Assembly: GCA_963663225.1 (NCBI GenBank)
Contig: OY760142.1
Span: 1,440,001-1,504,000, forward strand
Reading direction: 5' to 3'
DNA length: 64,000 nucleotides
Source: Nitrospirota bacterium
GTDB lineage: Bacteria; Nitrospirota; UBA9217
Shown here: positions 17,648 to 38,588 of the stretch, one piece after another
How positions within the stretch are numbered: position 1 is the first letter of the stretch
Layout of the letters: each line of letters begins with the position of its first letter
Translations under genes and position numbers: made by a program
Notes under the pieces: generated by a model
Told to the model about the DNA's origin: nothing
The model's input: the letters and a program-made list of their open reading frames with translations, nothing else
Database searches by the model: none

Positions 17648-17724
<77 letters not shown>

Positions 17725-17762
17725 AGCCAATTAAGATCATATGGTTTGATCTGGTTGCTGTC

Positions 17763-17838
17763 GGGGCTGTAGCTCAGCTGGGAGAGCACCTGCTTTGCAA
17801 GCAGGGGGTCGGCGGTTCGATCCCGCTCAGCTCCACCA
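17763..17838 (+). tRNA. tRNA-Ala(TGC)
   Basis: GGGGCTGTAGCTCAG...TTTGCAA...GTTCGA...CTCCACCA. Confidence 0.97.
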
Positions 17839-34969: not shown

Positions 34970-35893
34970 CTATATGCCCTCCGATTTTTTGTGCTTAAGA
35001 AACGTTCCTCTTTGATATTCTTCAAATGCCAACTCCAATTCTTCATCGGTGTTCATCACGATTGGGCCATACCATGCCACAGGTTCACCGATGGGCTTGC
35101 CGGAAACAAGCAGGAACCGCACGGGCTCGCCCTGCGTTGAGATGGTCACCTGGTCTCCGTCGCTGAATAGCGCCGCGGTCCCATTATGGATGTACTGATC
35201 TCGTTTCATGTCGAAATAATTCTCACCGAGAGCACCATAAGCAAAAGGATTTTTTTCGTTGCAGAAAACGCCTTTCCCGCCGATTACGTAAGCAAAGACG
35301 GTATGGCCTCGCGGGGTCTTATGGACGAATTCGGAATGTGCCGGAAGGGAAACATCGAGATATTCAGGTTCTATGACAATGTCCCTGACCGGCCCCTGTT
35401 GTCCTTCCACGCTTCCGCAGATGACTTTGATTTTCGCGCCGCTTTTTGTCGTGACCTCCGGCACCTGAGAGCTTTTGATATCACGGTATCGGGGCGTCAT
35501 CATCTTATGAGCCCTGGGAAGATTTGCCCAGAGCTGAAAGCCTTCCATGATGCCGTTGTCATCTCCTTGCGGCATTTCCTGATGGATGATGCCGCTTCCC
35601 GCGGTCATCCACTGCATATCGCCCGACGAGATGATGCCTTTGTTGCCCATGCTGTCTCCGTGCTCTACGTCACCTTTGAGCACATACGTAATCGTCTCGA
35701 TGCCGCGATGAGGGTGCCAGGGGAAGCCCTTGATGTATTGATAAGGATCGGTATTGCGAAAATCGTCCAGCAGGAGGAACGGATCGAAGAGCGGGACCTC
35801 GCTGTTTCCGAAAACCCTCCGGAGATGTACTCCCGCCCCTTCCATTGTGGGTTTGCTTTTGAACACTTTTTTGATTCTTCTGTTGGTCATCAT
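34970..35893 (-). CDS. Pirin family protein
   Basis: EGAGV, DPFLLLD, HPHRGIETITY, WMTAGSGIIHQE, QLWANLP, YGPIVMNT. Confidence 0.95.
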   Translation of the reverse strand: MMTNRRIKKVFKSKPTMEGAGVHLRRVFGNSEVPLFDPFLLLDDFRNTDPYQYIKGFPWHPHRGIETITYVLKGDVEHGDSMGNKGIISSGDMQWMTAGSGIIHQEMPQGDDNGIMEGFQLWANLPRAHKMMTPRYRDIKSSQVPEVTTKSGAKIKVICGSVEGQQGPVRDIVIEPEYLDVSLPAHSEFVHKTPRGHTVFAYVIGGKGVFCNEKNPFAYGALGENYFDMKRDQYIHNGTAALFSDGDQVTISTQGEPVRFLLVSGKPIGEPVAWYGPIVMNTDEELELAFEEYQRGTFLKHKKSEGI

Positions 35894-36060
35894 GATCTGG
35901 AGTCCTCCCTGCTCAAACTTATTCTTTAAATGGTGATCTATTACGCATTATTAGTATAACAGCTTTTTCTCAAGAGGCCGGTCATTCCATCGTTCTGCAT
36001 TCATTGCCTGCTGATTGAATCATCTTGCATCCGGCTTCATAAATCGTGTATCATTGCGGC

Positions 36061-36528
36061 ATGGCGGAGAAAAAAGAAAACACGGCAGTTGCGACGAACC
36101 GCAAGGCCCATCACGATTACTTCATTGAAGAAACGCTTGAAGCAGGAATCGTCCTGCAGGGCACGGAGGTAAAGTCGCTGCGCCTGGGCCTCGCGAACCT
36201 GACGGACAGCTATGCCATTGTAAAGAACAATGAAGTGTTTCTTTTTAATGCGAACATCAGTCCCTATCCCCATGGCAACATCATGAACCATGAACCGCTG
36301 CGGACCCGCAAACTCCTTCTTCATCGCGAAGAGATACGAAAGCTTATCGGAAAAATAAACCAGAAGGGCTTCACGCTTGTTCCGCTCAAGATTTATTTTG
36401 CGCGCGGAAAAGCCAAGGTGCTCATCGGCCTTGCCAAAGGCAAAAAGGCGTACGACAAGCGGGAAACGATCAAAGAGAAGGAATCAAAACGCGAAGTAGA
36501 GCGCGCAGTAAAAGAGCGCAGCCGATAG
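36061..36528 (+). CDS. smpB: SsrA-binding protein
   Basis: [41 protein letters not shown]. Confidence 0.97.
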
Positions 36529-36584
36529 GTGTCCTTCCTGCCGGTGTTCCAACAATTAATCCCACAGAGCATCTGAACTTCCAT

Positions 36585-36617
36585 GGTCGGCGCAGGAGCG
36601 CCGGCCTTTGCTATTTT
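36585..36617 (+). terminator. smpB terminator
   Basis: GGTCGGCGC-AGGA-GCGCCGGCC followed by TTTGCTATTTT. Confidence 0.65.
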
Positions 36618-36648
36618 TGATATACTGGAGGCAGGGAAAGGAGGTGAG
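36618..36648 (+). promoter_or_regulatory. Extended -10 promoter and strong RBS of the peptide gene
   Basis: TGnTATACT at 36618-36626; AAGGAGGTGA just upstream of ATG 36655. Confidence 0.6.
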
Positions 36649-36654
36649 GCCGGG

Positions 36655-36777
36655 ATGAAAAAGATCGTAAGCGAGTCAGCGCTGATCAAGGAAGCTGCCC
36701 TGTGGGAGAAAATGAAGGACGCGGTTCAGAAGCATCCTGCAACGGTATGCCACAAGTGAAAGAGCTGAAAGAGTTAA
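36655..36777 (+). CDS. Putative selenocysteine-containing RiPP precursor MKKIVSESALIKEAALWEKMKDAVQKHPATVCHKUKSUKS (34 aa if the first UGA is a stop, 40 aa with two Sec)
   Basis: Strong RBS; codons TGC CAC AAG TGA AAG AGC TGA AAG AGT TAA; downstream hairpin; adjacent to a radical SAM/SPASM gene. Confidence 0.7.
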
Positions 36778-36780
36778 AAA

Positions 36781-36813
36781 GCTGCCGGTCGGTAGCGAAA
36801 GTATCAAGGCAGC
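36781..36813 (+). promoter_or_regulatory. Candidate bacterial SECIS hairpin
   Basis: GCTGCC/GGCAGC lower stem, GGTA(G)C/GTATC upper stem, GAAA apical loop lying 28 and 37 nt after the two UGAs. Confidence 0.5.
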
Positions 36814-36886
36814 AGGAAGGCGGCATGACCGCAAAGACGTTCCGCGGCGGTCTATCCGCCTCCCTGCCCGTTTGTTATTTTCTATC

Positions 36887-36907
36887 GGCCGCCAGGGCGG
36901 CCTTTTT
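36887..36907 (+). terminator. Intrinsic terminator/attenuator between the peptide and rSAM genes
   Basis: GGCCGC-CAGG-GCGGCC followed by TTTTT. Confidence 0.65.
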
Positions 36908-36927
36908 GCTGAGCCTGAAATCATACT

Positions 36928-37977
36928 ATGTCCATAGGCAAGGAATTCGAATTCATTATACAATGGCATCTTACAGAACGATGCAACCTGCAGTGCTCCC
37001 ACTGCTACCAGGACGGAACGCATAAGCAGGAGCTTTCGACGGATGAGGTGCGGTCCGGATTCGAAGAGCTACAGGATCTGTTTTCCGCGTGGTCGGAGAT
37101 TCACGGTCTTGTCTTGATTCCGAGCTTTAATATTACCGGAGGAGAACCGCTTCTCAGGAATGATCTCTTTGAGATTCTGGAGGACCTTGCCGGCCGCGGC
37201 TGGGAAACGTTCGTGCTCACGAATGGAACTCTCGTCAACGAGCAGATCGCCCGCCGGTTCGTCGACCTGGGCATCAAGGGCGTGCAGGTAAGTCTGGAAG
37301 GCCCTGAAGCGACGCATGATGCGCTCCGTGGACCAGGAAGCTTCCATGCCTCGCTTTCCGGCATCCGCGCGCTTCTTCGCGAAGGCGTATCGGTGACTGT
37401 CAATGCCACGCTGTCGGAGATTAATGCCGAGGGGTTTTTCGATCTTGCCGAAACAGTTGCCCGACTAGGTGTCCCGCGCCTTGGGTTCTCGCGGCTCGTG
37501 CCTTCGGGGAAAGGTGAAACGTTGGCCGGGCGCATGCTCGCTCCCGATAGAGTGCGCAGTCTGTACCAGCGGATCATTTCGCTCTCCTATGAGAGTATGA
37601 CGATGACGACGGGTGATCCCGTGGCTGCATGCATGCGTACTGCAGAAGACGGGACTGATGACCAGGGAGATGTTGCTTTTGGTGGGTGCGCGGCCGGCGT
37701 GTCAGGACTTACGATCCTATCCGACGGGACGATTGTGCCGTGCAGGCGGCTTTCCATACCGATAGGGAATATACGGACCGAGTCGGTCCGTGAGGTCTGG
37801 GCGACCTCGCCGGTGCTCGACGCACTGCGAACGCGGGCGCGCTACGAGGGGAAGTGCGGCGCTTGCAGACACTGGGCGACCTGCCGCGGATGCAGAGCGA
37901 TTGCCTTCGCCTGGTCTCTTATCCGGGGGGAGGGAAACTTCCTTTCTGATGATCCTCAGTGTTTCCTGAGAACATGA
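36928..37977 (+). CDS. Radical SAM/SPASM domain protein (putative peptide maturase)
   Basis: QWHLTERCNLQCSHCY, TGGEP, TNG, QVSLEG, seven-Cys SPASM motif GCAAG..PC..KCGAC..TCRGC..DPQC. Confidence 0.92.
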   Translation: MSIGKEFEFIIQWHLTERCNLQCSHCYQDGTHKQELSTDEVRSGFEELQDLFSAWSEIHGLVLIPSFNITGGEPLLRNDLFEILEDLAGRGWETFVLTNGTLVNEQIARRFVDLGIKGVQVSLEGPEATHDALRGPGSFHASLSGIRALLREGVSVTVNATLSEINAEGFFDLAETVARLGVPRLGFSRLVPSGKGETLAGRMLAPDRVRSLYQRIISLSYESMTMTTGDPVAACMRTAEDGTDDQGDVAFGGCAAGVSGLTILSDGTIVPCRRLSIPIGNIRTESVREVWATSPVLDALRTRARYEGKCGACRHWATCRGCRAIAFAWSLIRGEGNFLSDDPQCFLRT

Positions 37978-38030
37978 TATAAAGCAAGAATACCGGCTAG
38001 AAAAAATCCGTTTTTTTCAAGTGACTGGCC

Positions 38031-38588
38031 TTATTTATTAGCAGAGGCCTCATCTTCTTCAAGGTCGAGTTCTGCACAGAACGTGATATCAACACGTTTT
38101 CCCACCATAAATCCCCCGCCTTCGATGTCCAGATTCCAGATCATGCCGAAGTCCTCTCGTTGAATGGTGGCGGTGGCGTTAACACCGTAAGTCGTATACG
38201 TTTTATCATCGTCGGCGAAATAGGACGGTCCCAGATAGGTAACATCAAAAAGTACCGGACGGGTAATCCCGCGGATTGTAAGATTTCCGGTAACTTTTAA
38301 AAAATTCATTCCCATGACTTCTACTGCTGTGCTTTTGAACAGTATGGCGGGAGACTTATCAACGTCAAAAAAATCCTCACTCCGTAAGTGGCTGTCTCTC
38401 CGGTCCACGCCGGTATAAACGCTGGCAGCGTCGACTTCAAGCTCTATGGTTGTTGCTGCGAGTTCAGCCGGGTCAAAAAAAATTGCTCCGCTGACCTTGG
38501 TAAAGAGACCATGAACGGCTGTCACCATCATGTGACGGACAGAAAAACCCGCCGATACATGATCCGGATCGATTTTCCACTTTGGCAT
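38031..38588 (-). CDS. YceI family protein
   Basis: WKIDPDH..FSVRHMM, RDSHLRSEDFFD, GNLTIRGIT, REDFG. Confidence 0.93.
   Translation of the reverse strand: MPKWKIDPDHVSAGFSVRHMMVTAVHGLFTKVSGAIFFDPAELAATTIELEVDAASVYTGVDRRDSHLRSEDFFDVDKSPAILFKSTAVEVMGMNFLKVTGNLTIRGITRPVLFDVTYLGPSYFADDDKTYTTYGVNATATIQREDFGMIWNLDIEGGGFMVGKRVDITFCAELDLEEDEASANK

Follow-up and report, generated by a model that had tools for sequence, protein, structure and literature searches.

The 64,000-nucleotide stretch analyzed here (the window; contig OY760142.1 of assembly GCA_963663225.1, covering 1.440–1.504 Mb of a 3.26 Mb Nitrospirota genome) carries a short gene with two in-frame UGA codons. It is followed on the same strand by the gene of a radical S-adenosylmethionine (rSAM) enzyme with a SPASM domain. 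We consider it likely that the two genes form a cassette of a new family. In this cassette, a precursor peptide containing two selenocysteines (Sec) would be served by an rSAM/SPASM maturase lacking an RRE, the recognition element of peptides that are made by the ribosome and modified after translation (RiPPs). The pairing of a selenocysteine peptide with its own rSAM/SPASM enzyme is well supported by the observations described below. The features of the locus are as follows, with coordinates given within the window.

36046–36528: SmpB gene (Pfam match, 7.3e-64), directly upstream of the peptide gene
36585–36606: terminator-like hairpin 3′ of smpB
36618–36626, + strand: TG-n-TATACT, resembling an extended −10 promoter element for the peptide gene, read from the sequence, with a putative function
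36638–36647, + strand: Shine-Dalgarno sequence AAGGAGGTGA, 7 nt upstream of the ATG
36655–36777, + strand: peptide gene, 40 codons plus TAA (Sec codons at 36757–36759 and 36766–36768, TAA at 36775–36777)
36781–36796, + strand: hairpin GCUGCC-GGUC-GGUAGC of the selenocysteine insertion sequence (SECIS) type, beginning 3 nt past the stop codon
36808–36868, + strand: long imperfect hairpin between the SECIS-type hairpin and the terminator, from the minimum free energy (MFE) fold
36887–36907, + strand: intrinsic-terminator-like hairpin GGCCGCC-AGG-GCGGCC (36887–36902) with a T run, separating the peptide gene from the rSAM gene
36928–37977, + strand: radical SAM/SPASM enzyme of 349 amino acids (Pfam Radical_SAM and SPASM), starting 150 nt after the TAA of the peptide gene

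An earlier sequence-only reading of this DNA had described the promoter, the ribosome binding site, the leader, the C-x-x-U-x-x-U register, the closing UAA and the rSAM gene 150 nt downstream, and all of these were confirmed on the sequence. The SECIS-type hairpin, the intrinsic terminator between the two genes and the upstream smpB gene are additions to that description.

Probable translation through two UGA codons

The open reading frame (ORF) consists of MKKIVSESALIKEAALWEKMKDAVQKHPATV, followed by TGC CAC AAG TGA AAG AGC TGA AAG AGT TAA. With TGA read as Sec (U), it encodes the 40-residue product MKKIVSESALIKEAALWEKMKDAVQKHPATVCHKUKSUKS*, composed of a leader (residues 1–31) and the core C32-H-K-U35-K-S-U38-K-S40. 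The pattern Cys-x-x-TGA-x-x-TGA-x-x-stop occurs once in the window, where 0.06 occurrences are expected, and 6 of 100 shuffled sequences reach one. Taken alone, this count is weak evidence against chance. The pattern is nevertheless more than a chance event, because both TGA codons stay in register in 60 distinct homologous genes.

The homologues were collected in two ways. A DNA search of 40 relatives showed that positions 36634–36800 are conserved at 69–88% identity in 12 loci of the same family. A profile built from 13 peptides, with stop codons read through, was then used to search 401 genomes sampled from the phylum. Matches were obtained in 74 genomes; 72 of them are full-length with exactly two internal TGA codons, and two are weak and partial. 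Upstream of the gene, 12 related loci carry TGnTAnnAT elements at the matching distance, and the Shine-Dalgarno sequence is kept in 12 related loci as GGAGGTGA or GGAGATGA. The −10 element of the window was not listed by a consensus promoter scan because it has no good −35 partner.

TGA occupies both Sec positions in every one of the 60 distinct gene sequences. Conversely, the closing stop codon varies among the same genes (TAA in 31, TGA in 23 and TAG in 6). Were the first TGA a true stop, it should drift in the way the closing stop does. It never does, and the first TGA therefore does not appear to be a true stop. The sequence-only reading had named homologues ending at the first UGA position with TAA or TAG as an outcome that would count against it. 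No such gene was found, and coding appears to continue downstream. Along most of the ORF, including the part past the first TGA, the entropy of third codon positions exceeds that of the first and second positions. Past the first UGA, Lys is encoded by AAG in 47 and AAA in 6 genes, Gly by GGC in 31, GGT in 11 and GGG in one, and Ser by AGC or AGT; a single gene uses TCC instead of AGY for the Ser between the two Sec positions. Past the second UGA, Lys is encoded by AAG in 56 and AAA in 4 genes, and Ser by AGC in 49 and AGT in 10. The core of the family follows the consensus C-[HRL]-K-U-[KSN]-[GSA]-U-K-[SA]-stop, and the leader contains the invariant residues K12, E13, A14, A15, W17, K21 and P28. 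Judged by this conservation, the double-UGA peptide gene is real and not a chance pattern, and both UGA codons are probably decoded as Sec.

The peptide has escaped annotation. In a collection of 5.8 billion proteins, all 132 homologues end at residue 34, directly before the first UGA, and are unnamed or labeled "hypothetical protein". With Cys written for Sec, the peptide had no match at E ≤ 10 in NCBIfam release 20.0 or Pfam, libraries that include the UXX-star, UxxU and selenobacteriocin models of a 2026 review. The Protein Atlas placed the 34-residue product only in unnamed clusters at 0.89–0.90, which is uninformative. No description of the peptide was found among the listed matches of full-text literature searches; supplementary and BSepDB tables lie beyond these searches and may contain further families.

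SECIS-type hairpin and selenocysteine machinery

The hairpin that begins 3 nt past the stop codon has a six-base-pair stem and a GGUC loop, located 18 nt past the second UGA and 27 nt past the first. In 58 aligned sequences, 99.1% of the cells of the six-pair stem are paired, and the pairing falls to 13–59% when the partner strand is slid by 1–3 columns as a control. Compensatory changes occur in three of the six stem pairs (32 cells), with a covariation score reached by none of 500 shuffles. Loop sequences are GGUC (31 genes), GGUCN (15) and GUC, GUU or GGU (13), together 59 of 60 genes. Between the second UGA and the loop lie 16 nt in 37 genes, 17 nt in 10, 18 nt in 9, 15 nt in one and 38 nt in two; in the remaining locus the script picked a wrong hairpin. 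The first UGA is always 9 nt further away.

The bacterial SECIS model, as given in the available text of PMC13188914 and its Figure 2 legend, has a loop of 3–9 nt with a G in the first two loop positions, a stem of 4–16 bp, a UGA-to-loop distance of 16–37 nt and an MFE of −7.5 kcal/mol or lower. The hairpin falls within the loop, stem and spacing ranges of this model. The energy, computed for the mini-hairpin alone, is borderline, at −8.2 kcal/mol in the window, with a mean of −7.5 and a range of −5.2 to −12.5 kcal/mol over the 60 genes.

The second, longer hairpin (36808–36868) matched no Rfam family. Many related loci have a comparable hairpin whose 5′ arm opens with a motif resembling GGCAGATATGG, and in most cases a T run comes after it. 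Attenuation or stabilization, conserved among these loci, is one possible role. A run of at least four T residues lies within 230 nt past the peptide stop in 57 of 59 related loci examined, and attenuation may take place at the terminator between the two genes.

The observation that the window itself contains no sel genes holds; the machinery is encoded elsewhere in the same genome, where selA (597 bits) adjoins selB (376 bits) at 3.06 Mb, and selD (372 bits) is located at 0.52 Mb. The selD gene has its own in-frame TGA, followed by a hairpin with a GUU loop. A tRNA-Sec gene is found at 3.21 Mb (C1:3214210–3214304; 62.8 bits), and ARAGORN also calls it as tRNA-SeC with anticodon TCA. A second Rfam tRNA-Sec match lies just 3′ of selD (C1:522308–522451, 144 nt; 48.9 bits against a gathering threshold of 47) and received no ARAGORN call. 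Of the 401 genomes, 190 carry selB. Among the 72 with the peptide 65 do so, and no peptide occurs in families that lack selB.

The partner enzyme

The rSAM enzyme matches PF04055 (5.6e-20) and PF13186 (4.4e-10), and only the Radical_SAM, SPASM and Fer4_12 domains were found in it. The CxxxCxxC motif at C19/C23/C26 is invariant among the orthologues. The seven-Cys SPASM domain claimed from the sequence was borne out: exactly seven Cys residues are invariant in this half of the protein (C254, C272, C310, C313, C319, C322 and C345). By the precedent of CteB-type enzymes, seven Cys residues would presumably leave one open iron site on the auxiliary cluster for a thiolate or selenolate. There is no N-terminal RRE, because the protein begins only 18 residues ahead of CxxxCxxC.

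All NCBIfam matches of the enzyme are below the family cut-offs. The scores, in bits against the cut-off, are 187/500 for AhbD, 174/500 for NirJ2, 171/400 for ACGX, 146/350 for SbtM, 103/625 for StsB and 76/340 for PapB. The clustering with heme-biosynthesis enzymes that would have spoken against a maturase was thus not seen. The AlphaFold model has a predicted local distance difference test score (pLDDT) of 89.4. Its nearest folds are SkfB, BlsE and SuiB (TMq 0.72–0.75), followed by PqqE and anSME, and SkfB is the best match in the Protein Data Bank by both sequence and fold. The public names of the orthologues are generic or, for some JGI entries, "AdoMet-dependent heme synthase".

Genomic coupling of peptide and enzyme

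An orthologue of the enzyme was found in 73 of the 401 genomes, with 389–466 bits and 50–58% identity; the source genome scores 797 against itself. The search is bimodal, and after a gap six genomes of one family follow with paralogues of 36–39% identity (209–231 bits). We considered these paralogues as a possible Cys-containing sister family and rejected the idea, as no such peptide lies beside them. At four of these loci (L215–L218, in genomes G122, G219, G102 and G254), the paralogue is located between a secreted protein of about 495 amino acids and a multi-pass membrane protein of 540–718 amino acids. This conserved trio is a separate, uncharacterized cassette.

The full-length peptide is present in 72 genomes, the rSAM orthologue in 73 and both in 71, leaving three discordant genomes. 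The only genome with the peptide alone carries it 65 bp from a contig end. Two genomes have the enzyme alone; in one that gene is truncated and contains a TAA, and in the other no peptide is recognizable upstream. Among the 71 genomes with both genes, the two are adjacent (gap below 400 bp) in 63, split by an insertion sequence (IS)-like ORF in one, and on different contigs in 7. The pairing proposed from the single locus thus recurs in 71 of the 401 genomes. Both genes are retained even when unlinked, which argues for a functional pair rather than a cis-regulatory leader. In 21 loci of 16 kb each, the rSAM gene, present in 19, is the sole gene common to more than nine.

Several loci depart from the usual arrangement. 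The IS-like ORF noted above (locus L212, G157:C39) has 319 amino acids, resembles a transposase or integrase, and is inserted between the peptide gene and the rSAM gene. Orphan peptide copies without an adjacent rSAM gene, with both TGA codons and the hairpin intact, occur at L081 (G343:C3), L089 (G236), L111, L136 and L154. Of three peptide copies in genome G343, one adjoins the rSAM gene; an orphan copy there is found some 1.6 kb downstream from an ORF resembling a YeeE/YedE-type transporter, judging by its first residues only. At L085 (G190) and L087 (G133), as well as in G248 and G281, only 24–42 nt separate the last sense codon of the peptide from the start of the rSAM match. At L085 and L087 the rSAM frame stays open, as the +2 frame, back across the SECIS-type hairpin and into the Sec core. 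The short gap and the open frame indicate that the two genes probably overlap there, where the terminator is absent. Of two hairpins at L087, it is the second that bears the GGUC loop, 38 nt past the second UGA.

In the window, the rSAM gene is followed by a YceI-like gene on the − strand (38031–38588). A YceI gene comes after the rSAM gene in 4 of 21 loci; besides the window, where the strands are opposite, these are L073, L074 and L086, where the two genes share a strand. This may be a coincidence within related genomes. Further upstream in the window, tRNA-Ile(GAT) and tRNA-Ala(TGC) lie 38 nt apart at 17648–17838. These two tRNAs are the usual spacer pair of an rRNA operon.

The database records that carry the cassette are labeled Nitrospirae/Nitrospirota, Nitrospiraceae, Thermodesulfovibrionia or Thermodesulfovibrionales, with single records labeled Deferribacteres, delta proteobacterium or "bacterium". 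These labels are not a census: the codon-pattern scan of contigs behind them gave at least 120 stretches, mostly chance occurrences in AT-rich genomes, and 15 of the first 80 loci are true peptides.

Modeled complex of leader and enzyme

The binding of the peptide to the enzyme was modeled in three runs with the rSAM protein (41-row alignment) and the 34-residue product obtained with translation table 11 (13-row alignment). The interface score ipSAE was 0.86, 0.85 and 0.85 (score 0.85), and the best of three controls gave 0.03. The ipSAE mark is reached by 58 of 80 solved complexes and by 2 of 110 mismatched pairs, counts that are approximate with custom alignments. The runs share at least 73% of their contacts, and the pLDDT of the partner is at least 75. 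Peptide residues 3–27 are placed on rSAM residues 5, 7, 47, 55, 58–59, 61, 246–251, 258, 284–293, 301 and 317–318. The interface residues W55, R288, E289, W291, A292 and R301 are kept in eight sampled orthologues. Two paralogues lack the W55 region and have Thr in place of R288. The model supports binding of the leader to the enzyme, and the peptide is probably its substrate.

Relation to known systems

To our knowledge, SbtA/SbtM is the only characterized natural RiPP system that contains Sec. It has been called the first RiPP containing SeCys to be installed by an rSAM enzyme (PMC9204691). The likeness to the present cassette is one of kind: as far as the available text of the sources describes it, SbtA/SbtM (TIGR04081/TIGR04082) also combines a ribosomal peptide containing in-frame UGA, a SECIS element directly after it and an adjacent rSAM/SPASM enzyme. 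According to the latest annotations, SbtA has at least two Sec residues (PMC9204691, PMC11002830). The residue before Sec is Gly in SbtA, and Gly, Ser or Ala precedes the second Sec here. However, the peptide does not match TIGR04081, and its C-terminus is C-x-K-U-x-x-U-K-S instead of GGUG or SGUG. The rSAM enzyme reaches only 146 of the 350 bits required for SbtM and aligns to model positions 199–505 of 516; since the alignment starts at position 199, an N-terminal part of about 190 residues of SbtM is absent here. The taxa also differ, with SbtA/SbtM described in Geobacter and Desulfobacteria (in the available text of PMC9204691) and the present cassette in Nitrospirota/Thermodesulfovibrionia. 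By these comparisons of sequence, membership fails on each tested feature, and the cassette is not SbtA/SbtM.

Like the present cassette, SCIFF is a single-copy, two-gene pair of a peptide and a SPASM enzyme that runs through an anaerobic lineage, with no exporter or protease known to accompany it. The SCIFF (Tte1186-type), PapB, CteB and SkfB systems share with the present one the two-gene peptide–SPASM arrangement and a core rich in Cys-type residues. In contrast to the SCIFF- and PapB-type systems, the specific NCBIfam models score far below cut-off and there is no RRE here. Sec was substituted in the laboratory in PapB and Tte1186, which accept it in place of Cys and form Se–C links through the auxiliary cluster (available text of PMC10177961), whereas in the present peptide it would be genetically encoded; the crosslinks proposed here are drawn by analogy with that work.

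AhbD and NirJ resemble the enzyme in having the best NCBIfam scores, a length of about 340–350 amino acids and no RRE. However, the scores are far below 500, and in the 21 loci the orthologues track the peptide gene rather than any tetrapyrrole gene. The UXX-star and UxxU selenoproteins (NF041114, NF041211, NF041115 and TIGR02605 forms), as tabulated in the available text of PMC13188914, likewise have a Sec three residues before the stop and a UxxU pair with a nearby RNA structure. They are domain proteins and not 40-residue peptides paired with an rSAM enzyme, and none of their NCBIfam models matched here.

Points of doubt and other explanations

A number of observations weigh against the assignment of a double-Sec precursor and its maturase. 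No homologue with Cys in place of Sec was found in the 72 genomes or among the 132 database proteins. The usual sign of a selenoprotein is therefore missing, and here the expectation of the sequence-only reading was borne out in part: the codons past the UGAs are conserved, and no Cys aligns to the UGAs. No RNA, ribosome-profiling, proteomic, mass-spectrometry or 75Se evidence for the peptide was found. A single hairpin would have to serve two UGA codons 9 nt apart, and the second UGA lies close to the minimum distance that the model permits (16 nt in 37 of 60 genes, 15 nt in one). Many loci have a mini-hairpin of −5.4 kcal/mol, which taken alone is weaker than the −7.5 threshold. Seven of the 72 peptide-bearing genomes, 63–96% complete, gave no selB at E ≤ 1e-70. 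On the side of the enzyme, the best family scores belong to AhbD and NirJ2, which act on tetrapyrroles, and no RRE or PqqD-like element was found in the protein by Pfam or as a conserved extra gene in the 21 loci. Nor is a protease, exporter or immunity gene conserved nearby in these loci. In the window a terminator stands between the two genes, and the complex model spans the 34-residue product only, with the Sec core outside it.

In one rival explanation the peptide is a finished small selenoprotein, with CxxUxxU serving, for example, in redox reactions or in binding a metal or cluster. The rSAM enzyme would then be a partner that draws selenium or electrons from the peptide, or uses it as a scaffold, to act on some other molecule. 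CxxUxxU resembles the CxxCxxC motifs that bind metals or clusters. UxxU metal-binding selenoproteins are also tabulated in the available part of PMC13188914. The lack of a conserved protease or exporter is consistent with such a role, and the co-occurrence and the modeled binding fit a partner equally well. Nevertheless, a conserved leader helix with a short invariant C-terminal core beside a SPASM enzyme is the standard architecture of rSAM-modified peptides, and the closest folds (SkfB, SuiB, PqqE and anSME) are those of peptide maturases. We know of no precedent for a peptide as a selenium donor to an rSAM enzyme. We regard this explanation as unlikely.

It is quite improbable that the short ORF is a selenium-sensing leader whose peptide has no function. 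Passage through the UGAs, set by the supply of Sec-tRNA, would control the hairpins and the terminator and hence the expression of an AhbD/NirJ-like rSAM enzyme. The order of short ORF, SECIS-type hairpin, long hairpin, intrinsic terminator and rSAM gene is indeed that of an attenuator, and AhbD and NirJ2 give the best scores of the enzyme. However, a functionless peptide would not explain conservation at the amino acid level, with invariant residues and free third positions. It also does not agree with the retention of both genes on different contigs in 7 of 71 genomes, with the two extra orphan copies in one genome, or with a model that puts the leader on the enzyme; the AhbD score itself is 187 against a cut-off of 500.

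Translation could also stop at the first UGA to give a 34-residue Cys peptide, with the downstream conservation belonging to the RNA alone, as a hairpin that binds SelB or stabilizes the transcript. We find this very improbable, despite the annotation of all 132 database homologues to residue 34 and although the 34-residue form suffices for a strong complex model. A second TGA follows exactly 9 nt on in 60 of 60 genes, and the third in-frame triplet is always a stop yet varies among TAA, TGA and TAG. The changes between the two TGA codons are synonymous or exchange Gly, Ser and Ala. The first TGA is never TAA or TAG, whereas the closing stop is one of these two in 37 of the 60 genes.

The last explanation is that another frame is coding (either an ORF that overlaps or the rSAM gene extended upstream) or that the region is a noncoding RNA next to smpB. 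It draws on a +2 frame that is open through the core and hairpin (a 107-residue ORF at 36702–37025) and joins the rSAM frame in two loci, and on the frequent location of transfer-messenger RNA (tmRNA) genes after smpB. It is extremely improbable given that in the window the +2 ORF and the rSAM gene are in different frames, that the third-position changes of the peptide frame would be first-position, amino-acid-changing ones in the +2 frame of the alignment, and that smpB is not a neighbor in related loci. Candidates of this kind were also sought directly and rejected. Rfam had no match at E ≤ 1 in 35500–38500, ARAGORN found no tmRNA in the window, and the 293-nt transcript region folds no better than shuffled sequences (z = −1.35). 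A pseudogene was likewise rejected, and so was a repeat or mobile element, as matches within the genome itself are trivial (18–37 nt).

Proposed mechanism and significance

For the double-Sec precursor and its RRE-less maturase, we propose the following course. SelB, acting through the one SECIS element just past the stop codon, would direct Sec insertion at both UGA codons. The resulting 40 residues would comprise an amphipathic leader and, at the C-terminus, the core C-x-K-U-x-x-U-K-S. The terminator and long hairpin separating the genes match a common layout in which precursor exceeds enzyme, and the terminator would keep the peptide in such a surplus. Without an RRE, the enzyme may bind the leader helix directly, through SPASM helix 287–293 and helix 38–59, and would then modify the Cys/Sec core.

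SPASM enzymes that act on Cys make thioethers, and anSME oxidizes the β-carbon. The likeliest chemistry would be the formation of chalcogen-to-carbon crosslinks (selenoethers or thioethers), with Sec or Cys first ligating the open site of the auxiliary cluster. The crosslinking that the sequence-only reading had attributed to the enzyme is thus plausible by analogy. Alternatively, oxidation of the β-carbon may end in a seleno-heterocycle, as with SbtM, which in a Gly-Cys/Sec motif turns Cys/Sec into a thio(seleno)oxazole (available text of PMC9204691). Since Gly, Ser or Ala always precedes the second Sec, a heterocycle of the SbtM kind has as good a claim as a crosslink, and either of the two could be the modification of the core. 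Because no protease, exporter or immunity gene is conserved nearby, we favor, as a guess, a product that stays inside the cell and serves in redox reactions or metal binding over an antibiotic that is secreted.

The cassette would add a second, unrelated peptide–enzyme pair with two genetically encoded Sec residues beside SbtA/SbtM. Its peptide occurs in 72 of 401 sampled genomes of one phylum, corresponding to 65 of the 190 genomes that carry selB. With 40 and 349 amino acids, the two components are small enough for direct reconstitution. They could serve as a test of SPASM chemistry on native Sec, of the ability of one SECIS element past the stop to serve two UGA codons 9 nt apart, and of leader recognition by a maturase without an RRE. 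The double-UGA peptide also exposes a blind spot of annotation: because all 132 public homologues end at the first UGA and are unnamed, selenoproteome counts for these lineages miss the peptide. Tentatively, and with somewhat less than even confidence, we suggest that the cassette represents a second, independent and more widespread natural class of Sec peptides, in which an RRE-less rSAM enzyme may yield a doubly selenium-modified, intracellular redox or metal-binding cofactor in anaerobic Nitrospirota.

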